This document shows, piece after piece, positions 47,036-64,000 of a DNA stretch of 64,000 bases. Each line of letters begins with the position of its first letter. Position 1 is the stretch's first letter. The stretch comes from a virus, in IMG/VR virus record IMGVR_UViG_3300045988_099276, positions 32,001 to 96,000 of that record; one strand, 5' to 3'. The position numbers and the translations under genes were made by a program. Below the pieces are notes generated by a model. That model was not told the origin of the DNA. It made no database searches and saw only the letters and a program-made list of their open reading frames with translations.

Positions 47036-48082
47036 TTAAAAAGGATTAGCATCAGAAATACAGACTTGTAGACGGTCAAGAGCTTCGCCATACATACCAG
47101 CGAAATCATCACCACCGTATGTAGAGCCATCATCGCATACAGAGTTTAGCCAACCTTCACGGGCAACTGTCTGTGAACGATAGTATACTTGCTTATATTC
47201 TTCACCTTTGGGTGTAATATAATACATGCGTACACCGTCAATCGCATGACCACCAATACCAGCACAGCCGTTAACTAGGTCATTTTTATTACCCTGAGAT
47301 ATATAGTCTAGCCAGCCATCCTGCTGAGTGTGAACCTGATACTTGAGAGTACCACGGTCAGCCCAAGCGCATAGATAATCGTGCTTGCCGCAAGGCACAC
47401 CAGCAAAGCCGTTTGAATCAGAATTATTAAAGTTAGTTACTGTATCATTCCAGCCGCCATTAAGATTGCGCAGAGCATAGTGAACATTAACAAGAGCTTT
47501 ACCCTGCGGAGCCTTATTAGTAGGTGCAGGTGCAGGAATAGGTTTATTTGTAGAAGGAGCAGGAGCAGCTTCGGCGCCGTTCTTCATTGCATCATACCAA
47601 GCCTGCGCTCGACTCATATATTCAGCGTTTTGACTACCAGCTAGTTCGCCCGGACACGCCGTAGACGACCAATAGCGATGTGGGAAGACATTAACTAGCC
47701 ACTGAGGACGACCAAGATTGTAATAGAGACATAGAGCAGCGACTAGATGCGCACCAGACTCTAAAGCAGCAGGGAAGACAGTCCAAGGATTGCTGTTGTT
47801 GTTAGCGTGCTCAATAGAGATAGTATGAGTATTTGCATACCAATTACCGCAAGCCCAAGCGGTATCCCAGTCATTGACCATCTGACCGATTTTACCATCA
47901 GCCTGAACCGCATAGTGAGCAGAAGTCTGCGAATGGCTCCATAGATTATAGCACTGGTCGATAGAAAGATTACCAGCCATATGATGAATAGTAATACCAG
48001 TAATGTTAGCACCTTCACGACCTGCGGTATAGTCACAAGGTAGAATCTTTGTTACATCAGCTTGAATATTTTTCCAATCCAT
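47036..48082 (-). CDS. endolysin: N-acetylmuramoyl-L-alanine amidase (Amidase_2/PGRP) + ChW-like cell-wall-binding repeats
   Basis: N-terminal ITGITIHHMAGN...SAHYAV...ISIEH...CPG. Pro/Ala linker. C-terminal repeats (GWND...FAGVPCG, DGWLDY...CAGIGGHAIDGVRM, EGWLNS...FAGMYGEALDRLQV). Confidence 0.82.
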   Translation of the reverse strand: MDWKNIQADVTKILPCDYTAGREGANITGITIHHMAGNLSIDQCYNLWSHSQTSAHYAVQADGKIGQMVNDWDTAWACGNWYANTHTISIEHANNNSNPWTVFPAALESGAHLVAALCLYYNLGRPQWLVNVFPHRYWSSTACPGELAGSQNAEYMSRAQAWYDAMKNGAEAAPAPSTNKPIPAPAPTNKAPQGKALVNVHYALRNLNGGWNDTVTNFNNSDSNGFAGVPCGKHDYLCAWADRGTLKYQVHTQQDGWLDYISQGNKNDLVNGCAGIGGHAIDGVRMYYITPKGEEYKQVYYRSQTVAREGWLNSVCDDGSTYGGDDFAGMYGEALDRLQVCISDANPF

Positions 48083-50941: not shown

Positions 50942-51559
50942 TTAAAAAGTAGCTCCGTTGCAGCCACAGCCACAAGGAGTAGCGAAATTAGGCACTACGC
51001 CATAGCCATAAGGGGAAATACGAGGTACTCCGCAGAACATATTCTGGGTTTTAAGCTCGGAAACTTGAGCCTGTAGAGACTTAATCTTATCCTGTGCAAG
51101 AGCATCTAGAATCTTTTGGGTCTGTGCGGTGGTGTTCTCATTAATAGCAGCTGTGTTCATTGCAGCACTGTATTTAATGTCAGAAGATGCTAAGCGATTC
51201 TCGCAGCAACAATTCGCTAGCTGGCTAGAAAGCGCATAATTACCATCTTTGATCGCATCCTGAGTAGATGCGAAGTTGCGTAGATTCTCATAGCCAACAG
51301 ATGCTAAACCTTGTGAAGTCTGCATGAACTGTGTCTGCATTAGGTCAGACAGACGGCCAACGCTATTTTCGAGGTTATTGAAATTCATAGCGTTGCAAAG
51401 ACCTGCTTCGGTAACAGGCTGTTCAGCGGTGTTGCGATTCCAGCCATTACCATACATGAATAGGAAAAGAACAATAATCCAAATCCAGCCACCAGCACCG
51501 CCCCAATTGTCGTTGTCTTTGGTGACTGCCGCAATATCGGATAGAGACATATTTTCCAT
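50942..51559 (-). CDS. hypothetical membrane protein with Cys-rich C-terminus
   Basis: AGAAAGAAG SD then ATG at 51559. TM helix GGWIWIIVLFLFMYG; CCC motif; C-terminal PCGCGCNGATF. Confidence 0.5.
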   Translation of the reverse strand: MENMSLSDIAAVTKDNDNWGGAGGWIWIIVLFLFMYGNGWNRNTAEQPVTEAGLCNAMNFNNLENSVGRLSDLMQTQFMQTSQGLASVGYENLRNFASTQDAIKDGNYALSSQLANCCCENRLASSDIKYSAAMNTAAINENTTAQTQKILDALAQDKIKSLQAQVSELKTQNMFCGVPRISPYGYGVVPNFATPCGCGCNGATF

Positions 51560-51621
51560 AATAATCTTCTTTCTATCGTGGTGCATAGAAATATTTTATC
51601 CTGTGCGCACAAGTGGATAAA

Positions 51622-51831
51622 CTAATTGAAGAATTTGGCTATATTCATAGCTTGTTGCTTTAGTGTCTCAAATTGCTGTTGAGACATTTGCCCAGAAGAG
51701 ATAAGAGACTGAACCTTCTCTTGGGCTTGCTGAGGTGTGATGTTACTACTTTTAATGAAGTCCAACAACTCGGTCATTGGGTTGTTTTGCGGCATTTGTG
51801 TTTGCTGCAATGTTTGAAATAATTGATTCAT
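51622..51831 (-). CDS. hypothetical Gln-rich protein
   Basis: GGAAGGAG SD then ATG at 51831 (MNQLFQTLQQTQ...). Confidence 0.45.
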   Translation of the reverse strand: MNQLFQTLQQTQMPQNNPMTELLDFIKSSNITPQQAQEKVQSLISSGQMSQQQFETLKQQAMNIAKFFN

Positions 51832-52135
51832 ACTGCTCCTTCCATTTGTTGAATTCATCTTTTGTTATATAGTTATCCGCAGTTTGCGGCTCAACTTTTT
51901 GGAAGGAGTATTCTGAAATGGTAGATATACCATTCATATCAGTTTCTTTCAAATAAAAAATATCCTTATTTGAGTCCATAAGCAACGCTTTCGTTCCGCG
52001 AGGAACGGCACAGTTTTCCGCTTCTTGACGATTAGACACAAATCTAACGCCTTGAATTTGATTTGCGGGTGTGTAGGCGCTATTCTGCATAGGCATATAT
52101 GGCGCATATGGATTGAAATAAGGATATTCGTTCAT
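51752..52135 (-). CDS. hypothetical protein
   Basis: 127-aa ORF with AAGGAGAAC SD. Its 3' end overlaps the next gene by 80 nt. Confidence 0.5.
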   Translation of the reverse strand: MNEYPYFNPYAPYMPMQNSAYTPANQIQGVRFVSNRQEAENCAVPRGTKALLMDSNKDIFYLKETDMNGISTISEYSFQKVEPQTADNYITKDEFNKWKEQYESIISNIAANTNAAKQPNDRVVGLH

Positions 52136-52321
52136 GGTGTTCTCCTTAGTGATATGTAGTAATACATATATATAAAAGAAGATATGGTAAGAGTTAATCT
52201 ATTTTATTGCATGGAATCTGATTTAACTTCATTACCATATCTTCGTAGTGTCTTTAAGATTTTTCTCTCTATTGTACCTAAAAATTAGAGGGTAAAAATT
52301 ATAATACTTTGCCCAATAATT

Positions 52322-53053
52322 TTAAATTTTTATCCACAACTTACATCTTGAATCTGTTGGCTGAGTAGATGAAACTTGAACTGAATATTCAGTGTTTGCA
52401 CTTCCAGCAGTAGTGGCATATTTAACTGATTGAGAACCAATATCAGCTGATGTAATACATTGGCCGTAATATGAATCGTCTGAGTTATATAGAGAAACAT
52501 TCGGAGTACCATTTAAACCTTTGACGCAAAAGGCACCACTCTTATTATGGTCACCAATAGCAGCATCATCGCCAACGACATACCAAGTATTGTTTGCGAA
52601 ATACGGTTCTAGCTTAGAAGGAAAATCACTGATTTGAGACTTTGTATGTGTATGACTAGAAGGCGTATATGTATTTGGCTTTCCAGATATATTATTCCAA
52701 GCGACAGCATTCGCAGTGGCGGCTGTAGTCGCTGTTGTGGCACTTCCTGCTGAATCAGCATATCCCGCAGACATTTTATACCAAGCACTAGAATTTAGCG
52801 CTCTTTTGTATAAATAAGATGATGCTCCGTCTGGAATAGCAATTTGAAATGGAGTGCCAATATCTGCATCGGTGAACACACTTGCCCATGTGCCAACGGG
52901 AGAAGATGCGTTGCCACCAGTTGACGGCACTCCCCTGACAACATAATAACCAGTTTTGGTATGATTATCTAGATTCGTATCAGTTGTTACTGTTTCTGTC
53001 AACAGCGGTATTTTAGAAAATTTACTACCATCAGAAAGATAAAGTTCAGCCAT
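52322..53053 (-). CDS. tail fibre / receptor-binding protein (fibre C)
   Basis: N-terminal MAELYLSDGSKFSKIP; ISGKPNTYTPSSHTHTKSQISDFP module; conserved C-terminus SSTQPTDSRCKLWIKI. No SD; ATG overlapped by the leader stop. Confidence 0.72.
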   Translation of the reverse strand: MAELYLSDGSKFSKIPLLTETVTTDTNLDNHTKTGYYVVRGVPSTGGNASSPVGTWASVFTDADIGTPFQIAIPDGASSYLYKRALNSSAWYKMSAGYADSAGSATTATTAATANAVAWNNISGKPNTYTPSSHTHTKSQISDFPSKLEPYFANNTWYVVGDDAAIGDHNKSGAFCVKGLNGTPNVSLYNSDDSYYGQCITSADIGSQSVKYATTAGSANTEYSVQVSSTQPTDSRCKLWIKI

Positions 53054-53117
53054 TTAAATCAATTAAACTAGTTAATGTGGGCTTAAAGCCCCCCCCCCAA
53101 GAAGTGTAAGTTTGCAT
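53046..53117 (-). CDS. poly-G leader ORF C (23 aa, ON frame)
   Basis: GAAAGGA SD then ATG; MQTYTSWGGGFKPTLTSLIDLNG. The TGA overlaps the fibre ATG (AATGGCTGA). Confidence 0.5.
   Translation of the reverse strand: MQTYTSWGGGFKPTLTSLIDLNG
53089..53098 (-). repeat. homopolymeric tract, G10 on the coding strand
   Basis: C10 run on the + strand inside leader ORF C. Confidence 0.95.
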
Positions 53118-53134
53118 AAAAATTCCTTTCAATC

Positions 53135-54181
53135 TTAAATTTTAATCCATATCTTACATGTATTGCTAGTAGGCTTTGTGCTAGATATGGTTACAATGTC
53201 GCTCGCTGCCTTGGCATTGAGCTTTGTGTTCATTTCACTTTCAGTATAGTAGCGGTCATCGTGAGTGTGGCTAGAGTTGGCTTTGCCGTTTAATTTAGTA
53301 TTGATTTCGCTTTCAGTGTAATATCTATCATCGTGAGTGTGACTTGACGGAGCATACGTAGAAGGTTTGCCATTAACATTCCCCCATGACACACTATTGG
53401 CAGAACCAGCACTGCTGGCATATGCAACTTTACCAACATCATAACCAGTAGCTTGTGCAGTATATGCTCTTGTGTCCATTGCAGCTCGGGGTTCATCGTT
53501 CATTAACTGCCAAGAAGAGCCATTACCACCACGGGTGCTGTTTGCTAAAATTCGGATATTACACGAATTATATGTGCCAGTAGCATGAAAATATAAATCA
53601 GCATATCCAACAGTTGATTTAGCAGAATGTATTTTTAAAATAAATTGGTCTGGTTCATATCCATATCTACAAAGCCATTGAACGTTTCCATGAGTAGCCA
53701 CAGCGCTTTCAGATACATTATCATTGCGGAAACGGACTGCTAGAATGCCAAATCCACCACTTTCGTAACCAGAATCTACACACAATACAACGCTACCATC
53801 GAAAGAATTAGTTTTTGATTCAAGCTTTAAACAACGCCAATATGGTTTAGCAGCACTGCTTTGAGTAACATATCGGACAGTACCATTTAAATAATTAGCG
53901 ATATTAGCTGTACCAGAAATATTACATGATACAACATTTCCTACTGGATTATATTTAAAATTATCGCTATGAACTCTTTGATTATCTGCACTATTATTTG
54001 AAAACCAAACATGTCTTGCAGCATTGTCCGAAGCGGTACCATAACTTTTTACTTCTTTCGCGGCACCTCCTGCGGAATCTGCACCCGCATAATTATGGCT
54101 ATGACTAGCAGCTGCTGCTCCCACCATATCTGGCGTCCACTCTTTAAAAGACCCGCCACTGGGATAATACGCTTTAGCCAA
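53135..54181 (-). CDS. tail fibre / receptor-binding protein (fibre B)
   Basis: TTG start without SD; MAKAYYPSGGSFKEW; SSHTHDDRYYTESE(I/M)NTKL occurs twice; C-terminus SSTKPTSNTCKIWIKI. Confidence 0.72.
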   Translation of the reverse strand: MAKAYYPSGGSFKEWTPDMVGAAAASHSHNYAGADSAGGAAKEVKSYGTASDNAARHVWFSNNSADNQRVHSDNFKYNPVGNVVSCNISGTANIANYLNGTVRYVTQSSAAKPYWRCLKLESKTNSFDGSVVLCVDSGYESGGFGILAVRFRNDNVSESAVATHGNVQWLCRYGYEPDQFILKIHSAKSTVGYADLYFHATGTYNSCNIRILANSTRGGNGSSWQLMNDEPRAAMDTRAYTAQATGYDVGKVAYASSAGSANSVSWGNVNGKPSTYAPSSHTHDDRYYTESEINTKLNGKANSSHTHDDRYYTESEMNTKLNAKAASDIVTISSTKPTSNTCKIWIKI

Positions 54182-54193
54182 TTAAATCATTGG

Positions 54194-54253
54194 CTACTGA
54201 TGCCCCCCCCAGCAGACCTCACTAAAGGTGCGCTGTGTTAAAATATTCTTCAT
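54194..54253 (-). CDS. poly-G leader ORF B (19 aa as sequenced, OFF frame)
   Basis: MKNILTQRTFSEVCWGGHQ* with G8. With G9 it reads ...WGGASVANDLIG* and its TAA overlaps the fibre TTG (TTGGCTAA). Confidence 0.45.
   Translation of the reverse strand: MKNILTQRTFSEVCWGGHQ
54203..54210 (-). repeat. homopolymeric tract, G8 on the coding strand
   Basis: C8 run on the + strand inside leader ORF B. Confidence 0.95.
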
Positions 54254-54260
54254 ATTATCA

Positions 54261-55721
54261 CTATACCTTAATCCATAATTTACAAGTACTCGCGTTGGGC
54301 TGCGAAGAAGAAACGATAACTTCTTCTGGCCGCCAAGTGTTAGTGTCATTATCAGTAAGCGCAATAGTCGCATTGCCAGACTGGTTCAAAGTAAACGTAC
54401 CCTTTGTAGCGCCGTTCTGCGTAATTGTAATAGTACCATTGCCGACAGAAGGAATTGACGGTCTGTTAGAGATTTCAGACCAAGAATAGGAAGGTTTGCT
54501 TGAAGCCTTAGCCCAAGCATACACATCACTTGCTGGCATACTGGTAGGGAAATCTGTAATCTGGGACTTTGAATGAGTGTGTGAAGAAGCGGCGGCACCG
54601 ATACTAGAAGCTGTGATATTAATATTCTTGACTGCACTACCATCATATGCACCTTGAGAAGTACCATTTAAAGAAATGGTAAGCGCATTAGGATTCTTTA
54701 AAGAACTTGGAACAGTAGGAATAGTAGGCTTATTGGAAAGGTCATTATATGAGCCGCTTGTCGCAACGGTAGCAAAAGATGGCTTGCCAGATACCTGTGA
54801 CCAAGTAGGAGTATGATTGGAATCAAAATAATGCGCCCAAGCGCTCCAAGCGTTAACATTAAACTGGCGAATCCAAGTTTTCATAGCATTGGTATTGCCC
54901 TCAGTTAAAACTTGAACTAGATAACTGCCAGCTGTTCTTTTGACTTCAAGACCGAAAGCGTCTACGCCAGTGGGCTTATTCTTGACACTATTTGAACCAC
55001 CCGCAAAATAAAGGCCAACTGTTTTAGTATCATCAAGATTTTGTGTAGTAAGTTCTGTTACCTTTAGTGCGTTTGCGGTTGCAGCAGTAGTCGCACTGCC
55101 AGCACTAGCCGCATACTTTACACTCTTGGCAGAGTCAGCGGTATTATCAACATTACCTAGACCGACTTCTGCCTTAGAATATGAAGGTTTTGTGGCTGCT
55201 TTCGCCCATGCAGAAACATCTGATGCTGGCATTGAAGTCGGAAAATCTGTAATATCGGCTTTAACATGTTTGTGACCAGTATCAGACTTACCGTCAAGAG
55301 CAGATTTAACAACCTTACTCTGAACTGGATTGGTAGAATTAGTAACGAACGATGTATCTACAACTGTCTTGTTCGCGCCAGTAGCAACACCGTCAAGTTT
55401 AGCCTTATCTGCGGCAGACATAAGACCTGCGGCACTGGTAGTAGCATTGCCGTATACAGTATTTGAATCGGTAACATTAAATGTACTACCATCGCTACCC
55501 TTGAGGGTAATTGTATTGCCATTTTTGGTTAGATTATAAGTTGTATTTGTATTGATATTATCTTTAATCTGAATCAGAGAGGATGAAGAAATACCCATCC
55601 ACAAAGTGCCGGTATCGGTGGCAACATACAATGCACCGTCCAATACTTTATTTTCGGCAGTGAGTGCTTTGATATTAGGTTCTTTATCTCTGATAAATTT
55701 TACTCTTGCTATCTTGCTCAC
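54261..55721 (-). CDS. tail fibre protein (486 aa)
   Basis: GAAAGGA SD then GTG. Repeated KADITDFPTSMPASDVSAWAKA / KSQITDFPTSMPASDVYAWAKA modules with HTH/HKH motifs. C-terminus SSSQPNASTCKLWIKV. Confidence 0.78.
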   Translation of the reverse strand: MSKIARVKFIRDKEPNIKALTAENKVLDGALYVATDTGTLWMGISSSSLIQIKDNINTNTTYNLTKNGNTITLKGSDGSTFNVTDSNTVYGNATTSAAGLMSAADKAKLDGVATGANKTVVDTSFVTNSTNPVQSKVVKSALDGKSDTGHKHVKADITDFPTSMPASDVSAWAKAATKPSYSKAEVGLGNVDNTADSAKSVKYAASAGSATTAATANALKVTELTTQNLDDTKTVGLYFAGGSNSVKNKPTGVDAFGLEVKRTAGSYLVQVLTEGNTNAMKTWIRQFNVNAWSAWAHYFDSNHTPTWSQVSGKPSFATVATSGSYNDLSNKPTIPTVPSSLKNPNALTISLNGTSQGAYDGSAVKNINITASSIGAAASSHTHSKSQITDFPTSMPASDVYAWAKASSKPSYSWSEISNRPSIPSVGNGTITITQNGATKGTFTLNQSGNATIALTDNDTNTWRPEEVIVSSSQPNASTCKLWIKV

Positions 55722-55736
55722 ATCCTTTCTGATAGA

Positions 55737-56498
55737 CTATTTAATAGAAGACCAAGTTAAATCATCTGGCGTAGCAAAATCAGAAGCATCATGATATGCG
55801 GCAGATTTTAAACCATATACTGCCACAGATTTATCTTTAACTTTGATTGTACCATTTGTAGTGCCAGTAGTAATAGATGTAACTGTCAAAACATCAGATG
55901 GCAAAATGCCGCTTGCAACGGTATCGACATATGCTTTAGTGGCAATGTCATTATCGTCATTGATGGCTTGACCAGCCGCGTATTTAATTTTACCAGATAA
56001 AGTACCACCAGTAAGAGGAAGATATTTCGCTTTCTCTTGGTCGGTATATGCCTTTGCATCTTTAAGGGCTTTATCTGCCCTTACTTGTGCGTCTGTTGAA
56101 GACGCACCAGATGCAGTCTTAATTGCTGAATTCATCTCACTCTTGGTTGGATAGTTCGATAGGTCGGTCTTAGAACCACCTAGCTTTTCAAACTTACCAT
56201 TAACCCAAAAATATTCAGTATATTCATTGCTGGATTCAGTCAAATCTGGCAACATATAAATTGTATTTTCTTCGCCAGTAGAAGGAAGAGTTGACCCTTT
56301 TGCAAGCACAACACGTTTAAGATGCGGCGCACCTGCCACTGCATTGGCAATAGCTGTGTTCATAGCATCCTTTTTAACATATTCTGCTGGAATTTTGTTA
56401 CTTGGAATGTTAATATCCCAATTAATATCAGAAGCATCTACGAGTTTGAAAGTGCCGTTATTCTTTTGTTTGATTTTATCAATAAGTTGAACAGGCAT
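55737..56498 (-). CDS. tail fibre protein (253 aa)
   Basis: Shares modules with 57341-58987 (HLKR.VLA..., TEY..VNG.FE..G, GTTNGTIKVKDKSVAVYGLKSAAY). Confidence 0.68.
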   Translation of the reverse strand: MPVQLIDKIKQKNNGTFKLVDASDINWDINIPSNKIPAEYVKKDAMNTAIANAVAGAPHLKRVVLAKGSTLPSTGEENTIYMLPDLTESSNEYTEYFWVNGKFEKLGGSKTDLSNYPTKSEMNSAIKTASGASSTDAQVRADKALKDAKAYTDQEKAKYLPLTGGTLSGKIKYAAGQAINDDNDIATKAYVDTVASGILPSDVLTVTSITTGTTNGTIKVKDKSVAVYGLKSAAYHDASDFATPDDLTWSSIK

Positions 56499-57316
56499 TA
56501 TTTCACCTCCACCGTAGTTGCACCTAATCCTGCATTAGTTGACCTATAGATATTATAAGAAGCGGTATAGCCACTTGCATTTGTGAAATCAAAAGTCTTT
56601 ACTTTGTTGAAGCCACCCTCGAAACCTCCAACATAAAATGCGGGAGTTCCAAAAGAAGCAGGAATAGCAAAATAAATATGCTGCTCAGCATTAGCTGTGA
56701 CGCTCCATGAACCAGTGCGGCCAGACACTAGATTTTTAGTAAGCCCTTTGACAAATGTCGCATCCATCCTAGAAGTATCTGTTATATTGCTCACGCCATA
56801 GTATTTACCATTTAAAAAGTAAATTGTAGTCTGCTTAGTAGATGTGGCTTTGCGAGCATCAGTAGCGGTCAAAGTAAATGCGGTCGTTGCGGTAAGAGGT
56901 GCCGCAAATGTAATTGCCGCATTCCCAGATTGTGTCTTATTGATTTCAAATGATTGGCTACCTGTTGTAATTGTCAGTTTAGAAGGTTGTTTGTTCAAAT
57001 TCCAAGAGAAGTTGGAAGATGGAAGACGAGAACCTATTTCAAGTGTGCCGCTATTGTTAGAAAAACTATTAACGGACATCGCTTTATAAATTGAAAGTGT
57101 GCCGTCAGAGGTAATATCAAAATCTCCGCTTGGCTTGATAATACCTGCAGCAGAACCCGTGGCAATTTTAATATCGCCACAGCTATATTTGATATTATTT
57201 TTCATGATACTCGTGGTATCTGAAAGAAAATAGATGCCGTTGGGGTCTATTTTGGTAGACCCCAACGCATCATACTCTGATTGCACGCCTGTGTAAAATC
57301 TAATATCAGCAGACAT
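56498..57316 (-). CDS. tail fibre / baseplate-associated protein
   Basis: N-terminus MSADIRFYTGVQSEYDALGSTKIDPNGIYFLSD resembles the other fibre N-termini; Ser/Thr-rich beta-type sequence. Confidence 0.6.
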   Translation of the reverse strand: MSADIRFYTGVQSEYDALGSTKIDPNGIYFLSDTTSIMKNNIKYSCGDIKIATGSAAGIIKPSGDFDITSDGTLSIYKAMSVNSFSNNSGTLEIGSRLPSSNFSWNLNKQPSKLTITTGSQSFEINKTQSGNAAITFAAPLTATTAFTLTATDARKATSTKQTTIYFLNGKYYGVSNITDTSRMDATFVKGLTKNLVSGRTGSWSVTANAEQHIYFAIPASFGTPAFYVGGFEGGFNKVKTFDFTNASGYTASYNIYRSTNAGLGATTVEVK

Positions 57317-57340
57317 ACAATCTCCTTAATCTAATTTAAA

Positions 57341-58987
57341 TTAGAGCGTCTGCCATTCAATTAGGCTGTTAGCATATTCCTTCGCAGATTTAAGAGCGTT
57401 GTTAGCCTTGGTAGTAGCATCTGCGGCAGCAGCGTCAATAGCTTCGCTCTTCTTTGTGTCAGCATAAGTCTTAGCTTCAGAAAGAGCGCCAGCAGCGGAA
57501 CCAGAAGCATCAAAAGCACCACTGTTCTGATAGGCAGCAGAACCAAGACCCTTAACGGCAACGTCTGTACCCTTGACAGAGATTGTACCGTTAGCGGTAC
57601 CAGAAATAACGTCAGCAGCCTGTAGAGCAGTATCGGCCTTTGTACCCTGAGCAGAGGTAGCGAAAGCACCAGTGGCGGCATACGCGGCAGTACCTAGGCC
57701 ATGAACCTTGACGGGAGCGCCCTTAACGGAGATAGCACCGTTAACAGTACCCTCAACAACATCAGCAGCCTGTAGAGCAGAATCAGCTTTATCACCTTGG
57801 TCGGCAGTAGCATAATTCTTGGCTAGACCATCAGAATAAGCCTTAGCATCTTCAAGAGCCTTATCAGCCTTTTTACCAGCTTCGGTGATAGCAGCAGCTT
57901 GAGCAGCGTTAGCCTTTGTGGTGGCATCGGTTGCGGCAGCAGCAATGGCAGCATTCTTAGCAGCATCGGCCTTAGTCTGAGCATCGGCAGCAGCTACGCC
58001 CTTAGCGGTAGTAATAGCACTAGTTACTTGGTCTTTAGTGAAGTAATTGCTAAGGTCTGTATCAGAAGTACCAATGCGTTCAAAGGCACCATTGATAAGC
58101 ATATACTCAGTGTATACAGACTTATTAGAACCTGCGGCATCAGCGCTGCCAGAATCAGGAACCATATAAATTGTATCTTCATTGGCAGCAGAAACCTCGG
58201 GGAGCTGAGCAACGATTTCACGCTTTAGGTGATGTGCGTTAGCTACAGCAGAAGTGATATGGCTATCAACTTCGGTCTTTGTATAAGCATCTCCGATACC
58301 ATAGCCAGCAAGAGTAGTAGCCTTGTTAGCTTTTTTATCAATTTCAGCCTGTAGAGCAGTCTTTGCGGCACCAACCTGACGGGTTGTCTCAGCAGCAGCA
58401 GCTTCGATAGCTTCTGTTTTCTTGGTAGCAGAATCAGCCTTGGCATCCTCTAGAGCCTTATTGGCTTTAGTAGTAGCGTCTGCGGCAGCGGCTCCAATAG
58501 CAGCCTGCTTAGCATCAGCAGCAGCTTTCTTGATAGAGCCTTCGCCCTCACCGTTAATAACGCCAATAGCAGCTTCATTAGCATTAGCTTTGCCCTCAAC
58601 AGCGGTAACGCGGTCAGCTAGAGCACCTGTATTAAGATTAGCAATAGTATCCTTAACATAATCGGCAACAGACTTAGCAGTAGCAAGCTCAGCGGCAGTG
58701 CTAGCATCAGAAATAGTAGTAGCCTTGGGAAGAACTACGGTCTGAAAAGCAGAGCCATCATAAAAACGAACTTCACCAGTAGTCTTATGGACATAGAGGA
58801 CATTCTGCTTAGCCGTATCGGTTGCAGGGAAAGCATCAACAGTCTTGTAAACGCCACCAGAGAAGCACTGGTCACCCTTGAAGATTTGGTTGACACCGTT
58901 ACCGATAAAGTACAGAGTATTGGGGTCTTTTACAGCAAGAGAGTTATACTTTGCAAGGTCGGTAGCAATAAATTTTACTTGTGCCAT
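57341..58987 (-). CDS. long Ala-rich coiled-coil tail fibre (548 aa)
   Basis: MAQVKFIATDLAKYNSLAVKDPNTLYFI; three AAADATTKAN.AL(E/K).AK repeats; duplicated GT.NG.ISVKG..V.V.GLG.AAY modules. Confidence 0.75.
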   Translation of the reverse strand: MAQVKFIATDLAKYNSLAVKDPNTLYFIGNGVNQIFKGDQCFSGGVYKTVDAFPATDTAKQNVLYVHKTTGEVRFYDGSAFQTVVLPKATTISDASTAAELATAKSVADYVKDTIANLNTGALADRVTAVEGKANANEAAIGVINGEGEGSIKKAAADAKQAAIGAAAADATTKANKALEDAKADSATKKTEAIEAAAAETTRQVGAAKTALQAEIDKKANKATTLAGYGIGDAYTKTEVDSHITSAVANAHHLKREIVAQLPEVSAANEDTIYMVPDSGSADAAGSNKSVYTEYMLINGAFERIGTSDTDLSNYFTKDQVTSAITTAKGVAAADAQTKADAAKNAAIAAAATDATTKANAAQAAAITEAGKKADKALEDAKAYSDGLAKNYATADQGDKADSALQAADVVEGTVNGAISVKGAPVKVHGLGTAAYAATGAFATSAQGTKADTALQAADVISGTANGTISVKGTDVAVKGLGSAAYQNSGAFDASGSAAGALSEAKTYADTKKSEAIDAAAADATTKANNALKSAKEYANSLIEWQTL

Positions 58988-59053
58988 GTAACATCCTTTC
59001 TTTTACATCTTGCAATACATATATATTATAAGCGCATTTGCGCATATAACCAA

Positions 59054-59485
59054 TTAAGATTCCAACTGATTCCATTCAGTTAGATTTGAAACCATAATAT
59101 ATTCTTTTGTGGCCGCAGACCATTTATAAGTAGCTTTGTCGGCAACATATAGTGTCTTTGGATTCCCTTCTTTTGGAAAATCTAGAACGCTTGTGGCAAA
59201 CACGATAGGCTCTAGATTGTCTGGAGTCATTTGCTGCCAAGAGCCATTTGAAAAATTCCACATGACGTTCGTAGAAGTGACGTAATAATATCCTTCAATG
59301 ACAGCAGTATATTTAATTCTGTCTTCTTCTGTGGCAAATGTCTGAATTGTCTTGAATGGATAGCGACCGCCATTGAAATCTAGACAAACTGTGCCGCCGT
59401 CAGTTACAAAAATAATATTGCCGTCACGCACTGGGAGCTTTGAGAGGTTCTTCGCGCTAACAGTGTAGAGGTTAGTATAAGTCAT
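59054..59485 (-). CDS. structural protein (fibre-associated)
   Basis: 143 aa; N-terminus ...LPVRDGNIIFVTDGGTVCLDFNG resembles the fibre N-terminal motif. Confidence 0.5.
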   Translation of the reverse strand: MTYTNLYTVSAKNLSKLPVRDGNIIFVTDGGTVCLDFNGGRYPFKTIQTFATEEDRIKYTAVIEGYYYVTSTNVMWNFSNGSWQQMTPDNLEPIVFATSVLDFPKEGNPKTLYVADKATYKWSAATKEYIMVSNLTEWNQLES

Positions 59486-60307
59486 TTAATCACCCTCCCC
59501 TACAAGTTTATCGAAGTCTATCATTTCAAGGTGCGGAGTTTGAATATTTCTATCAATATATTCTTTAATTGTAGAAATATCATCTGTAAACGTAATGCCG
59601 CATTTATCAGCATCTAGTTTTGAATCAATGCGGGCATCGACAATCGCCAAAGATTTCTTAGCTTCTTCCAGAGCTGCATCGGCTTTATTGCCAATTTGCT
59701 CAACACGTTCCATAGCTTCGGTAGCCTTTTTTGCCGCATCGTCTGCCTTACTAGCAGCCGCATTAGCTGTATCTACTGCTTCTTTTGCATCGACCTTTAC
59801 CTTGCTAAACTCAAGCAGCATGTCTTCAAATTCAATTTTCTGAGCAACCATCTGCTTTTTCATTTGGTCACCGATACAATTTAGACGAATAACTGCATTC
59901 TGGAATAGCGTGAAATCATCAGAAACTACAAAAGAAGAGCCGTCATTTGGGTCTGATAAAACGTGTACGATGAAGTTTGTAGACTGAGCAATAGAAACGC
60001 TGTCTACTAATTCAATGCAGCATAGAACATCGCCTTCGAGCAACATAGCTTGCGGCCATTTGATTTCCCAGATAATTGGGTCATCATTCGTCTGCGTGAA
60101 GACATTATATCCCTTAATCTTCTTTTGGCGATGGAACCAACTCAGATATACTTTAGTCTCAGGAGTAATTTGAGCAGCAGCTTCTTGGTCAAAAATAATC
60201 CTAAAAGTACGACCGTTCGCATCCGCGCCACCAGCTACAATAGGGTCTTTAATATCTTGGTCAAGAGACTTTAAATTGACTGTAACTGTTTTCAATTCCT
60301 GACTCAT
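59486..60307 (-). CDS. baseplate upper protein (BppU)-like
   Basis: N-terminal TVNLKSLDQDIKDPIVAGGADANGRTFRIIF resembles the BppU N-domain; C-terminal Ala-rich coiled coil. Pattern-level inference. Confidence 0.45.
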   Translation of the reverse strand: MSQELKTVTVNLKSLDQDIKDPIVAGGADANGRTFRIIFDQEAAAQITPETKVYLSWFHRQKKIKGYNVFTQTNDDPIIWEIKWPQAMLLEGDVLCCIELVDSVSIAQSTNFIVHVLSDPNDGSSFVVSDDFTLFQNAVIRLNCIGDQMKKQMVAQKIEFEDMLLEFSKVKVDAKEAVDTANAAASKADDAAKKATEAMERVEQIGNKADAALEEAKKSLAIVDARIDSKLDADKCGITFTDDISTIKEYIDRNIQTPHLEMIDFDKLVGEGD

Positions 60308-60841
60308 TTATTCACTCCTTTCATTGTTCTTTTGGCTTACAATAAATTGTGGATTGGAAAGATTGATTCTCGGTAGTTCGCGTATCTCTTCCATTAAGCC
60401 ATCAATGAATGAGTTGCCGCCTGCCGCTTTATAATATAAATATCTACGCTCTAGAGATTCTAGGTTAAGGTCATCAATAGCCTTGATTTCATAGCAAAAA
60501 TAGTGATGCTTGTCAATGATATAACTGCGAGAATTTTCCTGCAATCTTTCAAGAGTAAGTTTTTCATGCTCTTGGAGTGTTTTAATATCATTCGATTGGT
60601 TGCTAATTTCTTGGCTAAGATTTTTAACGTCTGCTTGCAACGAAGCAATACTTTCCACAATCTCAGAGTGCTTTATATCTTTAATTGTCTGATAGTTGAA
60701 ATACTTTTTTAATTTATCATAACAATATTCCAATAGCTCACTTAAAAATTTAAAAGCGACAGCTAAAGTCACAACTAGCATAACGATAGCCCCAAAAGAG
60801 TATTGCGATACCAGTTGCGATAAAGCATCCATTCTCGGCAA
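60308..60841 (-). CDS. membrane-anchored coiled-coil protein
   Basis: TM helix FGAIVMLVVTLAVAFKF followed by a coiled coil. Confidence 0.5.
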   Translation of the reverse strand: MPRMDALSQLVSQYSFGAIVMLVVTLAVAFKFLSELLEYCYDKLKKYFNYQTIKDIKHSEIVESIASLQADVKNLSQEISNQSNDIKTLQEHEKLTLERLQENSRSYIIDKHHYFCYEIKAIDDLNLESLERRYLYYKAAGGNSFIDGLMEEIRELPRINLSNPQFIVSQKNNERSE

Positions 60842-60910
60842 TATCCCTTCTTCTCTACATAATCTATATAATATGAAAATAATTTGTATTTGATTTTAGG
60901 AATTTGCCCA

Positions 60911-60943
60911 TAAAAAAACGAGGGAAACATAAAGTTTCCCTCG
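60911..60943 (-). terminator. Rho-independent terminator
   Basis: CGAGGGAAAC/GTTTCCCTCG stem followed by T7 on the minus strand. Confidence 0.75.
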
Positions 60944-61008
60944 AATTAATAAACTATGTCTAGGAGATTAACAAAATTTGATATTATGCTGCACCTCCTA
61001 TCATATAA

Positions 61009-61395
61009 CTAGGCTGTGCGGAAATAGATATTAAAAGCCCTGTACTTTGGGCGGTTGTCAAAAGGTTGATTACCGCCTGTATTTTCCATCGAATCGTTTG
61101 GTGGATTCCAGCTTCTAGAACCGTTAAGAGCAGCTTTAAAATAGTTTTGTGAATTGCCAGTAAGCCATTCACCGAATCCAGCAAGCACGTGGTTATGTGA
61201 TGGCATTTGGTTAATTGTAAGTTTAATAGAGTTTGTGCCACCTGTTGTATTTGGCGTGCCGCAACAAATGAACGTGTCATTATCGAGCTTTGTCCATGTT
61301 CCGCCAATGGAATCTGCTGGCGAGACTGAATTGTTTGAAATAAAGACTGACCCAACTGGGTAGACAATATCCATGAGGTTAACGTAGTTAGACAT
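61009..61395 (-). CDS. phage tail-collar-domain protein, paralog 4
   Basis: MSNYVNLMDIVYPVGSVFIS...SPADSIGGTWTKL...MPSHNH...GGNQPFDNRPKY...YFRTA. Confidence 0.72.
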   Translation of the reverse strand: MSNYVNLMDIVYPVGSVFISNNSVSPADSIGGTWTKLDNDTFICCGTPNTTGGTNSIKLTINQMPSHNHVLAGFGEWLTGNSQNYFKAALNGSRSWNPPNDSMENTGGNQPFDNRPKYRAFNIYFRTA

Positions 61396-61413
61396 ACGCC
61401 ACCTCGCTCAGAT

Positions 61414-61806
61414 TTAAGCTGTACGATACCAGATAAAGCAAGTTGTATAGGGCGGCAGATTGTTGTGTGCTTGCCCCCCCCCAGTATTCTTTGCAGCATT
61501 ATTCCAATCTGGATTACCATCATTCCACGCAGGAGAATTAGTTGCAAAAAGTGTACGATATGTTGTTGCATTTCCACCGTTAACAACAGCAACAACAATG
61601 CCATGTCCATGAGACGGCATTTCATCAATTGTTAACGTATGCTTTGCTTCTCCGCCTGTTTGATTTGCGGTATTAGCTCCATAGAGGAAAGTCTTAATTT
61701 TCGTCCATGTACCACCAATAGAATCAGCAGGTGATGTTGCACTCATGCTCTGATAGATTGAGCCTACTGGATATACGATATCCAATAGATTTACAAAATT
61801 ACTCAT
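61414..61806 (-). CDS. phage tail-collar-domain protein, paralog 3 (contains an in-frame G9 tract)
   Basis: MSNFVNLLDIVYPVGSIYQS...GGTWTKI...MPSHGH...NTGGGQAHNNLPPY...WYRTA. The GGG GGG GGG codons encode the conserved GGGQ motif. Confidence 0.72.
   Translation of the reverse strand: MSNFVNLLDIVYPVGSIYQSMSATSPADSIGGTWTKIKTFLYGANTANQTGGEAKHTLTIDEMPSHGHGIVVAVVNGGNATTYRTLFATNSPAWNDGNPDWNNAAKNTGGGQAHNNLPPYTTCFIWYRTA
61474..61482 (-). repeat. homopolymeric tract, G9 on the coding strand, intragenic
   Basis: C9 run on the + strand, 23 codons before the stop of 61414-61806. Confidence 0.95.
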
Positions 61807-61850
61807 TTATATCCTTTCTAATTTAATAGAAAGAATATTATAAAATCTTC

Positions 61851-62303
61851 TTAGGCTGTTCTCTTATATACATTTAAAGAATAATGATAAGGAATATGCT
61901 TCTGCTGCTCGACTAATTGCCCATTTGAGTCTATTCGCCAAATGTCTTTAGTCCACAAATTCCAACCAGTATCACCACCATCTTTACCACCAACTGACAA
62001 TAATTGCCATAGATTACCAGCGGCAGCATTAGTATTCCAAAAACCAATACCCGAATATTGTTCCCTGTCATGATGCCAACCCACAACATTGTGCTGATGG
62101 TCTGGTATGGCTAGCTGAGAAATTATATTGCTACCAGAAAAACGTCCAGCTACGTTATAGGTATCACCACTTGCCGCAAGCAAACAATTTTCAATTTGTG
62201 TCCACGTACCACCAATAGAATCAGCAGGAGAAGTAGCATTTGTACTAATATAGATACTTCCTACTGGATAAATAATATCAAGAAGATTTACAAAATTAGA
62301 CAT
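61851..62303 (-). CDS. phage tail-collar-domain protein, paralog 2 (divergent C-terminal half)
   Basis: MSNFVNLLDIIYPVGSIYIS...SPADSIGGTWTQI...IPDHQH...YKRTA. Confidence 0.68.
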   Translation of the reverse strand: MSNFVNLLDIIYPVGSIYISTNATSPADSIGGTWTQIENCLLAASGDTYNVAGRFSGSNIISQLAIPDHQHNVVGWHHDREQYSGIGFWNTNAAAGNLWQLLSVGGKDGGDTGWNLWTKDIWRIDSNGQLVEQQKHIPYHYSLNVYKRTA

Positions 62304-62342
62304 GATAAATCACCATGCCTAGAACAGCCATTGAAGAAGAAG

Positions 62343-62399
62343 CTACATTACTGTAGCCTCCCCCCCCCAATGACTGTGATTAGTCATTAAGTTTTTCAT
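62343..62399 (-). CDS. poly-G leader ORF D (18 aa as sequenced, OFF frame)
   Basis: GAAAGGA SD then ATG; MKNLMTNHSHWGGEATVM* with G9. With G10 it reads ...HWGGGGYSNVASSSMAVLGMVIYHV* and its TAA overlaps the next ATG (ATGTCTAA). Confidence 0.45.
   Translation of the reverse strand: MKNLMTNHSHWGGEATVM
62360..62368 (-). repeat. homopolymeric tract, G9 on the coding strand
   Basis: C9 run on the + strand inside leader ORF D. Confidence 0.95.
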
Positions 62400-62434
62400 A
62401 ATATCCTTTCGTTTAGATATTATGATTTTAGACT

Positions 62435-62818
62435 TTAAGCAGTTCGCACCCAAACTTTGCAAGCATATGAATAAGGATAATAATCCTGTCCACCACCAGC
62501 ATCACCAGTATTACACCCTTGAGGATAGTTTTGTGCGCCAGCACTGCCTGAATCTTCACTATAGTCTTTACGAACAATATTAGGATTACCGTAATTTGCT
62601 GTAACATATTGAGCGTGTGCGTGAACTGGCATCTGTTTAACGCTAATAGTCTTACTACCAGTATAACCTACAATATCATCATATGCGGCCAAACATGCGC
62701 CATCTTTAATTTGAGTCCATGTACCGCCAATAGATGATGCAGGTGAAATACCGCTAGCAGTGATATATATACTGTTTACAGGATAGATAATATCTAGAAG
62801 GTTTACGAAATTGCTCAT
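62435..62818 (-). CDS. phage tail-collar-domain protein, paralog 1
   Basis: MSNFVNLLDIIYPVNSIYIT...GGTWTQI...MPVHAH...GGGQDYYPYSY...VWVRTA. Strong AAGGAGG SD. Confidence 0.72.
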   Translation of the reverse strand: MSNFVNLLDIIYPVNSIYITASGISPASSIGGTWTQIKDGACLAAYDDIVGYTGSKTISVKQMPVHAHAQYVTANYGNPNIVRKDYSEDSGSAGAQNYPQGCNTGDAGGGQDYYPYSYACKVWVRTA

Positions 62819-62931
62819 TATTCAACCTCCTTATTTGGGAGGTTATCTAAAATCATAATATCAAATTGATTTATAGATTCTAAGCTACCGCAGTAGCCCC
62901 CTAGAGAGGTCAATTCATTAAACTTATTCAC
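62818..62931 (-). CDS. leader-like small ORF E (37 aa) with a short G5 run
   Basis: AAAGGAG SD then GTG; VNKFNELTSLGGYCGSLESINQFDIMILDNLPNKEVE. Its TAA overlaps the next ATG (TAATG). LGGY aligns with WGGGGY of leader D. Confidence 0.45.
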   Translation of the reverse strand: MNKFNELTSLGGYCGSLESINQFDIMILDNLPNKEVE

Positions 62932-62975
62932 ATAAAACTCCTTTTCTTTCTCAGAATTATATTCTATATCTATAT

Positions 62976-63010
62976 GAAAAAAGGGCAAAACCCCTAATAG
63001 GATTTTGCCC
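62976..63010 (-). terminator. Rho-independent terminator
   Basis: GGGCAAAA/TTTTGCCC stem followed by T6 on the minus strand, after fibre A. Confidence 0.6.
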
Positions 63011-63019
63011 AAAACTATA

Positions 63020-63838
63020 TTAGATTTTAATCCACAATTTACAAGTAGAGGATGTAGGCTGAGAAGATGATACAGTGATAACATCATTTGCCGCATAATT
63101 GGAAGAAGAAGTATATGCGGCGCTACCAAGACCTAACCATTTCCTATATTCACCTTGTGATACGTCTTTAATTTTTCGTTCATCGTTCATACCAAGAGCA
63201 TACTTAAAATCGGCAGATGTAAATCCATCACCAGCATAACCGATTTTAATACCTTGATTAGTATTATTATAATCCGCTATCTCAATAGCTTTATCTGCTG
63301 AACCTGCACTTGTAGCTTTACCAGTAAGATTGCCTTTAAAATTATTAGCTTCAATCGTTGAATACGCAGTATTCGATGTATAATTACAAAACTTATATGT
63401 AATACCAGTAGTCCCACCATCTGATGCATCAGAGTCGGCATTTCTATAATTAAAATAACAAGTAGGTTGCTTACCACCAGAAAAGTTAATTTCATTTTGA
63501 TGAGTATAAATTACATTTATACACTTATTAGCGGTACCAGCTGAATTAGCATAATTTACTGACTTACTAGAATCTGCTGTATTATTGACGTTATTGATAC
63601 CTAGATATTGCTTTGCCGCATCTAGATTTACATCTTTAATATGATTGCCAGTTGAACTATATCCTGCAAGACAACCTAAATTCTTTTCAGCATCTTCTTG
63701 ATTTAATCTTAAAGATTCTGCTGCAAATCCTATTTTAATTGTTCTACCGGTAGGTGCATTATAATCTCGCACACCATCGGCTTTAGAAGGGACAAATTCA
63801 GAAAAATTCGTCCCATCGCTCACCATAAAATCAGCCAC
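63020..63838 (-). CDS. tail fibre / receptor-binding protein (fibre A)
   Basis: GTG start without SD; MADFMVSDGTNFSEFVP; C-terminus SSSQPTSSTCKLWIKI. Confidence 0.72.
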   Translation of the reverse strand: MADFMVSDGTNFSEFVPSKADGVRDYNAPTGRTIKIGFAAESLRLNQEDAEKNLGCLAGYSSTGNHIKDVNLDAAKQYLGINNVNNTADSSKSVNYANSAGTANKCINVIYTHQNEINFSGGKQPTCYFNYRNADSDASDGGTTGITYKFCNYTSNTAYSTIEANNFKGNLTGKATSAGSADKAIEIADYNNTNQGIKIGYAGDGFTSADFKYALGMNDERKIKDVSQGEYRKWLGLGSAAYTSSSNYAANDVITVSSSQPTSSTCKLWIKI

Positions 63839-63852
63839 ATCTATCAGCTAAG

Positions 63853-63897
63853 TTATCTAGCGGGGCAGATGCCCCCCCCCAGAAACGTATTATTCAT
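63853..63897 (-). CDS. poly-G leader ORF A (14 aa as sequenced, OFF frame)
   Basis: AAGGA SD then ATG; MNNTFLGGGICPAR* with G9. With G8 it reads MNNTFLGGASAPLDNLADRCG* and its TGA overlaps the fibre GTG (GTGGCTGA). Confidence 0.45.
   Translation of the reverse strand: MNNTFLGGGICPAR
63872..63880 (-). repeat. homopolymeric tract, G9 on the coding strand
   Basis: C9 run on the + strand inside leader ORF A. Confidence 0.95.
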
Positions 63898-63907
63898 ATC
63901 TACATCC

Positions 63908-64000
63908 TTAAATTTGTACCCACAGTTTAACATGTTCTTCTGTTGGCTTACTCACGCCAACATAAACAGTACCAACATCATCTGCAAGTTTACCATTGGT
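63908..64000 (-). CDS. tail fibre protein (3' end only; gene starts beyond the window)
   Basis: ...TNGKLADDVGTVYVGVSKPTEEHVKLWVQI*; the C-terminus is homologous to the ..QPT...CKLWIKI ends of the other fibres. Confidence 0.6.
   Translation of the reverse strand, partial: TNGKLADDVGTVYVGVSKPTEEHVKLWVQI

Follow-up and report, generated by a model that had tools for sequence, protein, structure and literature searches.

We analysed a 64,000-nt stretch of viral DNA (positions 32,001 to 96,000 of IMG/VR record IMGVR_UViG_3300045988_099276, called the window below; all coordinates are window positions) and found a short open reading frame (ORF), leader C, directly upstream of the tail-fibre-like gene fibre C. 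Leader C has its own Shine-Dalgarno (SD) sequence and carries a run of ten G residues (G10; Table 1). Judging from the sequence, leader C is probably a contingency switch that gates fibre C by frame-dependent translational coupling. We are far more confident that its tract is a hypermutable contingency locus, and its standing as a slippage hot spot is well supported. We infer that expression of fibre C depends on translation of the leader and that the other two frames are truly OFF rather than weaker.

On the minus strand, leader C starts with ATG at 53117-53115 and ends with TGA at 53048-53046, and it reads ATG CAA ACT TAC ACT TCT TGG GGG GGG GGC TTT AAG CCC ACA TTA ACT AGT TTA ATT GAT TTA AAT GGC TGA. 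TAA at 53137-53135 closes the upstream fibre gene (53135..54181), just 5' of the leader C SD. The sequence agrees with the original prediction, made by a model from the letters and their ORFs, in the G10 product and in the position of the TGA. The prediction also had the TGA overlapping the fibre ATG; the two ORFs do overlap by 8 nt, but the two codons share no base, since the layout is ATG-GC-TGA, which puts the first base of the stop 5 nt 3' of the A of the start codon. As predicted, a fibre-frame TAA (53056-53054) directly adjoins the fibre C ATG. The NTG-GCT-RA form of this junction is common to fibre C, fibre A (GTGGCTGA), and fibre B (TTGGCTAA).

We simulated leader C at a series of tract lengths. 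With G7, G10, or G13, the frame stayed open to the TGA on the fibre C start; with G9 or G12, which correspond to the fibre frame, translation met a stop 21 nt 5' of the fibre ATG, and with G8 or G11 the stop lay 32 nt 5' of it. Every simulated length thus gave a stop before the fibre or out of its frame, which excludes a leader C-fibre fusion at all tract lengths, as the original prediction had claimed. A fusion by programmed frameshifting is not a feature of leader C either, with three fibre-frame stops between the tract and the ATG.

We scored the anti-SD duplex energy of 70 window genes. The median best energy was -9.1 kcal/mol, and 83% of the genes were at or below -6 kcal/mol. The starts of fibre A (-3.0 kcal/mol), fibre B (-2.5 kcal/mol), and fibre C (-2.6 kcal/mol) were much weaker, with fibre C in the bottom ~10% of the 70 genes, which bears out the view that this fibre start has no SD. 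The leaders' own starts gave -5.9 to -9.6 kcal/mol. The few remaining SD-less window genes are located on TAATG-type overlapping stop-start junctions, which suggests that the phage uses coupling routinely. Leader C shows the features of a termination-reinitiation site: its own SD and start codon, a stop that at G10 lies within a few nucleotides of the fibre start, and a downstream gene without an accessible SD.

This arrangement recurs. For every leader there is a single length class whose stop falls at -2, +1, or +5 from the downstream start. We took nine leader families with different spacers, shuffled each spacer, and scored the layout in which one frame ends between -3 and +6 of the start and the two other frames stop early. 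Eight of the nine families have this layout, which arose by chance in a fraction of 0.08 to 0.29 of the shuffles per family. The significance of the leader C layout comes from this recurrence across leader families and not from leader C by itself. Coupling had been put forward as the plausible route to initiation, and the parts of that proposal that can be checked in silico (no fusion, no SD, only the G7/G10/G13 class reaching the start, and recurrence) all hold. Leader C had also been called the only leader in the ON frame; this is correct among the four long-tract leaders (A, 2, B, and C), but leader Z, which has G5, also reads through.

We propose the following mechanism. The length of the G10 run would change by slipped-strand mispairing during replication of the phage genome, a step that is well supported. 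Lying within an SD-led short ORF, the run would set by its length the frame in which ribosomes exit the tract. With G7, G10, or G13, the frame would stay open for 12 more codons, to the TGA 5 nt inside the fibre gene (ATGGCTGA), and the terminating ribosome, placed on the fibre ATG, would restart; termination-reinitiation would be needed because fibre C has no SD. In the other two length classes, the ribosome would stop 12 to 32 nt earlier, and the fibre would be made poorly or not at all. The same cassette, built from unrelated leader sequences, also precedes at least five further receptor-binding genes in the window and in relatives, and at some of the sister leaders read-through would melt a hairpin that hides the downstream SD. 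With the fibre genes intact and each switched independently, the population would come to hold many fibre combinations.

Length variation of the G tracts

Long G tracts are concentrated in one part of the window. A G8 pattern gave 10 matches, which form five tracts, versus 0.08 matches in dinucleotide-preserving shuffles. The five tracts (G10 at 53089, G8 at 54203, and G9 at 61474, 62360, and 63872) are all coding-strand G, never C on the sense strand, and lie within 53089-63880, an 11-kb region of fibre genes. Apart from these, the 64 kb holds just three G/C runs of 5, and runs of 6 or 7 do not occur. This bimodal distribution, with intermediate runs absent, indicates that the long tracts are maintained in one place. 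No tract of eight or more G's was present in ~370 kb of unrelated phage loci.

Homologous leaders in relatives (identified by L numbers where needed) carry tracts of G7 to G20 with a mode of G9; the counts for G7, G8, G9, G10, G11, and G20 are 6, 14, 50, 15, 4, and 1, with a few intragenic tracts misclassified as leaders. Homopolymer lengths taken from short-read assemblies are consensus calls that may be off by one, especially the G15 and G20 calls. For leader C, we found nine sequence variants in relatives that keep the start codon and the SD, with tracts of G8, G9, G10, or G15, and further variants have G7 or G11. An exact 25-mer of the leader matched six contigs in IMG/VR. An 18-mer junction search of JGI metagenomes returned mostly chance matches from unrelated environments, together with five contigs that have leader C or leader B tracts (L081, L087, L108, L110, and L115).

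The closest comparison came from ten contigs of different sequencing runs, in all of which the fibre C protein is identical. Of 72,000 flank positions compared, 33 differ (0.05%). At leader C, seven of the ten have G8 and three have G9, so that tract length differs in 21 of the 45 pairs. Length variation between otherwise identical genomes, the defining feature of a hypermutable tract, is therefore seen at leader C across contigs.

Every locus shows a sharp peak of tract length at G9, regardless of the length that is ON at that locus, which suggests that G9 is a mutational attractor. Only at leader B and at the intragenic tracts does G9 give the ON state. With this mode, "default ON" would describe leader B and the intragenic tracts, and "default OFF" the remaining leaders, for which a single slip would give ON. 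In the 15 lineages in which both leaders are visible, eight have B ON and C OFF, three have B OFF and C ON, one has both ON, and three (L081, L115, and L010) have both OFF. The idea that either B or C is always ON fitted the first 10 lineages (hand-computed Fisher p ~0.03) and was lost after metagenome contigs were added. The fibres behind leaders B and C may be "default" and "reserve" fibres, respectively.

Evidence for coupling and alternative readings

Sister loci provide a second line of evidence for a role of leader translation. Where a leader-controlled gene does have an SD, the SD is hidden in a hairpin, and the masking arm is crossed only in the read-through frame. We found such hairpins at leaders 2 and Z and at three loci in relatives, one of them in a more distant phage (Table 1). 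Unmasking of an SD was also considered for leader C and rejected, with an mRNA fold at z +0.96. Since the leader C mRNA is unstructured, coupling there would be plain termination-reinitiation.

Several observations weigh against the proposed gating of fibre C. Coupling is inferred from architecture alone, and the frame layout of leader C taken singly arises in 29% of shuffled spacers. Its mRNA folds no better than shuffles and has no start-masking structure. The OFF-frame stops are only 12 to 32 nt 5' of the ATG, so some restart is possible and the switch may be graded. Fibre B is OFF in the window, which leaves ~1 kb of untranslated mRNA ahead of leader C, and polarity could lower the transcript. 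Among ~80 leader tracts, about one-third of the consensus states are ON, as random frames would give, a proportion that would also be expected from unselected fast switching. Leader C is OFF in most relatives (ON in 4 of 15 lineages, versus 9 of 15 for leader B), and the association between B and C is nonsignificant (hand-computed one-sided Fisher p ~0.14). Finally, the consensus tract lengths may err by one in short-read assemblies.

The alternative that fares best, though we consider it unlikely, accepts a real contingency locus with a different output: a graded one (a high/medium/low rheostat by reinitiation in all frames), one blurred by ribosomal or transcriptional slippage on the G run, or one in which leader translation interferes with initiation at the fibre. 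The short distance from the OFF-frame stops to the ATG speaks for graded output, as does the lack of enrichment of the ON frame among consensus states. Slippage on the tract is plausible in that a tRNA-Gly shifting on a GGG run would keep its pairing, and most leader families have a small hairpin after the tract that is missing at the intragenic tracts. Against graded output, the OFF-frame stops at other leaders cluster right after the tract, maximally far from the start (-69/-64 at leader Z and -47/-42 at leader 2), which fits a real OFF state, and the anti-SD arm of the hairpin-type leaders is crossed in the read-through frame alone. Interference would need fibre C to initiate independently, which is improbable for a gene without an SD.

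We give a still lower probability to a tract that acts before translation, as a promoter or initially transcribed element, through RNA stability or structure, or as an SD mimic, with the small ORF incidental. A sigma-70-like match (TTGAAA-18-TACACT, 53132-53103) ends 5 nt 5' of the tract, but it scores only 9 of 12, the region has 34 such matches versus 36.2 in shuffles, and there is no equivalent at leaders A, B, and 2. An SD mimic finds some backing in deletion variants of leader B, where the G run lies 8 nt 5' of the TTG and gives an anti-SD duplex of -17.1 kcal/mol; the window tracts are 21 to 56 nt from the downstream starts, which is too far. No Rfam family match supports an RNA element, and a scan of 51000-64000 returned one subthreshold chance match. 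A role before translation also does not predict the leader SD, the start codon, and the layout with one open frame, and it does not account for tracts that are always sense-strand G and never C.

Equally improbable in our judgement is that initiation without an SD, at an AU-rich start, drives constitutive synthesis of fibre C and that leader and tract are a neutral or recombinational linker between cassettes. Leader C does sit in a conserved joint between variable fibre cassettes, and the consensus frames look random, as this reading would have it. It leaves unexplained why long G tracts are kept in all relatives when the genome lacks G/C runs of 6 or 7, why each leader has an SD, why unrelated leaders share the design with one open frame, and why SDs at sister loci are masked by hairpins. 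That the tract is a sequencing or assembly artefact, such as poly-G from two-colour chemistry, is scarcely credible: homopolymers are error prone and the G15 and G20 calls are doubtful, but dozens of independent assemblies (ENA, Logan, JGI, and IMG/VR) all have the tract at the same position, with conserved sequence around it.

Sister leaders, the fibre module, and the phage

Table 1. Leader, tract, hairpin, fibre, and tRNA features in the window and in relatives (L numbers). An asterisk is a stop codon.
Feature	Position	Strand	Remarks
Leader C SD, GAAAGGA	53130-53124	minus	6 nt 5' of leader ATG; anti-SD duplex -9.6 kcal/mol
Leader C mini-ORF	53117..53046	minus	23 codons plus TGA at G10; product MQTYTSWGGGFKPTLTSLIDLNG*
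Leader C poly-G tract, G10	53098-53089	minus	35 nt 5' of fibre C
Stop-start junction, ATGGCTGA	53046..53053	minus	fibre C ATG 53053-53051; leader TGA 53048-53046
5-bp hairpin after leader C tract, GGGCU/AGCCC	53079..53091	minus	uses last three G's of tract; -7.6 kcal/mol; 9% of shuffles as good
Fibre C	52322..53053	minus	243 aa; tail-fibre-like receptor-binding protein; ATG 53053-53051; no SD of its own
Fibre B	53135..54181	minus	348 aa; TTG start, no SD; start codon in 3' arm of 7-8 bp hairpin
Fibre A	63020..63838	minus	272 aa; GTG start, no SD; followed by strong terminator at 63010-62983
Leader A	63853..63897	minus	ATG 63897; G9 at 63872-63880; OFF, stops 17 nt early; G8/G11 end on GTGGCTGA of fibre 63020..63838
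Leader 2	62343..62399	minus	ATG 62399; G9 at 62360-62368; OFF, stops 42 nt early; G10 ends on ATGTCTAA of gene 61851..62303
Leader B	54194..54253	minus	ATG 54253; G8 at 54203-54210; OFF, stops 15 nt early; G9 ends on TTGGCTAA of fibre 53135..54181
Leader Z	62818..62931	minus	GTG 62931; SD AAAGGAG; 37 codons; TAA 62820-62818; G5 at 62897-62901
Intragenic G9	61474..61482	minus	within Gp10_C-like paralog 61414..61806, which G9 keeps in frame; classical coding-sequence switch
Masking hairpin, leader 2	62270-62415	minus	-48.9 kcal/mol; z -7.35; 0 of 200 shuffles as good; buries GGUGAU and ATG of gene 61851..62303
Masking hairpin, leader Z			SD of gene 62435..62818; GGAGG paired with CCUCC, 8-bp hairpin; z -2.5; 2 of 200 shuffles
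Masking hairpin in relative	L024:5440-5580		SD buried; z -2.3
Masking hairpin in more distant phage	L175:5335-5425		SD buried; z -3.98; 0 of 200 shuffles
Masking hairpin in relative	L042:6150-6260		SD buried; z -2.1
tRNA-Arg, anticodon TCT	1874-1950	minus	single tRNA gene of window

Leader Z is in the read-through frame and ends in TAATG on gene 62435..62818. Relatives have G7 to G11 at the spot where the window has a decayed G5, and the window copy may be locked ON. In the very stable fold of the leader 2 region (62270-62415), CUUCUUCUUC is the pairing partner of the poly-G, and a further hairpin hides both the SD and the ATG of gene 61851..62303. In some relatives, leader B has a 13-nt deletion, and the accompanying tract length restores the junction frame in L005/L034, L046, L067, and L068. 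The deletion variants (L005/L034, L035, L046, L067, and L080) have the poly-G so close to the fibre B TTG that it could itself act as an SD (the energy given above is that of L034), and two of their three frames end no more than 5 nt from the start.

A small hairpin of 5 to 10 bp, built with the last G's, follows the tract in most leader families (shuffle fractions 0.000 to 0.09) and is significant in families A, 2, Z, Ab, and Y. It is found after the window tracts at 63872 and 62360 and also at L023:6590, L025:3646, and L030:3617, and it often holds both OFF-frame stop codons. No such hairpin follows the intragenic tracts. The intragenic G9 of the window replaces a Gly-rich stretch just 5' of a conserved QAHNNLPPY motif, and relatives mostly keep this tract in frame, sometimes by compensating neighbours (e.g., G10 with loss of the next base).

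Two more distant relatives (L175:5354-5362 and L042:6169-6176) have a leader in which the ATG is followed directly by the G tract. In L175, G10 would give an in-frame fusion to the fibre, G9 a stop inside the SD-masking hairpin, and G8 a stop before the hairpin; the same phage has a classical G12 located 45 nt into a gene (L175:4677). These leaders look like an evolutionary bridge from classical 5' coding-sequence tracts to separate leaders.

Fibres B and C match tail-protein PHROGs, and fibre C has a sequence match to PDB 9d93, "tail collar fibers gp4" (E value, 3e-7). An AlphaFold2 model of fibre C from a 34-sequence alignment (mean predicted local distance difference test score, 52; predicted template modelling score, 0.25) was too poor for a fold search. 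The small paralogs at 61 to 63 kb are Gp10_C domains. The fibres (ORFs 52322.., 53135.., 54261.., and 63020..) have a common N terminus (MA..SDG.xFS) and a common C-terminal motif, SS(S/T)QP....CK(L/I)WIK(I/V)*, with differing middles. Leader C and the first ~45 codons of fibre C are near identical between genomes whose fibre bodies differ (243, 285, 349, 353, 364, and 370 aa), and the C terminus of the fibre upstream of leader C is likewise conserved between them. The leaders thus occupy conserved joints between fibres, a position that would also favour recombinational exchange of cassettes. The fibre B homologue in L042 starts at the same residue with an ATG and a strong SD, which argues that the TTG start of fibre B is no annotation error. 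Strong minus-strand hairpins that resemble intrinsic terminators lie at 62983-63010, after fibre A, and at 60919-60943, after four Gp10_C-like paralogs, and with them the fibre module would comprise three or more transcription units.

The window is part of a ~140-kb human-gut phage; relatives of fibre C are located on human-gut metagenome contigs of 130 to 147 kb. The window encodes both topoisomerase II subunits, a DnaB-like helicase, a RecJ-like exonuclease, a 1186-aa DnaE-like polymerase, and an anaerobic ribonucleotide reductase, and from 47 kb onward its minus strand carries a lysis cassette and a long tail-fibre module. The DNA polymerase is only ~38% identical to those of SPbeta-type phages, and a cultured-phage collection gave no match by nucleotide sequence (52000-56000) or by fibre C protein. 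Recoding of stop codons was considered and found unsupported by stop usage (50 TAA, 15 TAG, and 3 TGA), coding density (0.88), and tRNA content, with no suppressor tRNA found in the window.

Collinsella is the likely host, because the endolysin (47036..48082, Amidase_2) is 53 to 65% identical, mostly 60 to 64%, to genes in more than 50 Collinsella genomes, nearly all of them full-length matches. The phage has a G+C content of 37 to 40%, versus 63% at the matched Collinsella loci. These Collinsella genomes (L119-L174, e.g., L134:1516-1524) have a conserved poly-G of variable length (G8 to G13, most often G9) close to the 3' end of a 414-aa ORF with a reverse-transcriptase domain, ~1.5 kb upstream of the phage-lysin homologue. 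The ORF may be a prophage or diversity-generating-retroelement-type reverse transcriptase under phase variation.

Relation to known systems and implications

The closest known case is that of the Campylobacter Fletchervirus phages, described in two papers as having G7 to G11 tracts in several receptor-binding protein genes, in which slippage yields subpopulations with different fibre sets (PMC11959909; bioRxiv 10.1101/2025.10.21.683753; both citing Sorensen et al. 2021, Cell Rep 35:109214). The window resembles these phages in having G tracts of similar length at receptor-binding genes, with G10 before fibre C and five G8-10 tracts in the fibre module, and in that poly-G tracts of polymorphic length also occur in the presumed host lineage. 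An indel in a Fletchervirus tract is said to truncate the receptor-binding protein. The leader C tract, in contrast, belongs to a separate ORF of 23 codons and is no part of the sequence that encodes the receptor-binding protein, and a tract within a coding sequence is present only at 61474-61482. Four to five tracts in our window are in SD-led mini-ORFs, so that the fibre stays intact and any effect must pass through coupling. The phages also differ, ours being an uncultured gut phage of ~140 kb, probably of Collinsella. T2, T4, and other phages have homopolymer contingency loci that serve bet-hedging, mostly A/T runs of at least 6 inside ORFs such as agt and rIIA, and homopolymer repeats are under-represented in tail fibre genes (Gomez, Barrick and Waters, bioRxiv 10.1101/2025.10.21.683753). 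Unlike at those loci, the long G runs described here are concentrated in the fibre module.

Translational coupling at overlapping stop and start codons occurs in gene pairs of the trp operon, and in MS2 it is out-of-frame termination within the coat gene that brings ribosomes to the lysis gene. Leader C shares with both an SD-led upstream ORF that ends a few bases from an SD-less start, and with MS2 the principle that the frame of termination decides access. It differs from MS2 in that the frame would be set heritably in DNA by tract length and not by rare ribosomal errors, and from both in that the ORF upstream, a leader of 23 codons, has no further evident function. In Haemophilus influenzae, the lex2A repeat lies in a small ORF upstream of lex2B, and there too the downstream gene is intact. 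The lex2A repeats are GCAA units, ON at 12 and OFF at 10 and 11 (PMC6479036), that is, a tetranucleotide in a bacterial chromosome versus a G homopolymer in a phage.

Leaders 2 and Z and the leaders at L175:5354 and L042:6169 resemble the ermC-type leader peptide, which unmasks a sequestered ribosome-binding site, since translation through the anti-SD arm would free the downstream SD. Unlike with ermC, no drug- or amino-acid-dependent stalling is implied and the input would be the reading frame; leader C has no such hairpin. Phages also switch host range by inversion of the Mu G segment and the P1 C segment and by diversity-generating retroelements (BPP-1). The fibre module shares with these a reversible or stochastic change of the tail-fibre repertoire in a phage population, but it would use a homopolymer, with no invertase, inverted repeats, or reverse transcriptase involved. 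Promoter-spacer phase variation, in which the tract lies between -35 and -10 as in Bordetella fim and Neisseria opc, was considered and rejected for leader C in a scan for sigma-70-like promoters; the sole nearby sigma-70-like match lies wholly 5' of the tract, with no enrichment. A full-text literature search, with most subscription journals outside its coverage, found no description of a tract in a leader mini-ORF gating a downstream gene.

There is an even chance, in our estimation, that the poly-G leader is a portable cassette, consisting of an SD, a start codon, a G tract, two immediate out-of-frame stops, and one open frame onto the next start, that acts as a general translational gate before at least six intact receptor-binding genes in this gut-phage clade. 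Such a gate would give independent, heritable, and reversible ON/OFF states, possibly three levels of expression, and combinatorial virions, with the G9 attractor setting the default fibre. The device probably lets the phage gamble on the fibres carried by each virion. If this is true, whole fibre genes would be switched without damage, with the slippery run placed in a disposable leader and the fibre freed from the constraint of accommodating a Gly run, and translational coupling would join the known routes by which repeat tracts control genes. The cassette would also lend itself, as a compact and testable part, to the design of synthetic stochastic switches. Such leaders will escape metagenome assemblers and gene callers, and fibre starts may be misannotated. 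Host range would then be unreadable from gene content alone, since tract lengths must be called too, and phage contingency loci would extend from Campylobacter and T-even phages to abundant uncultured phages of the human gut.

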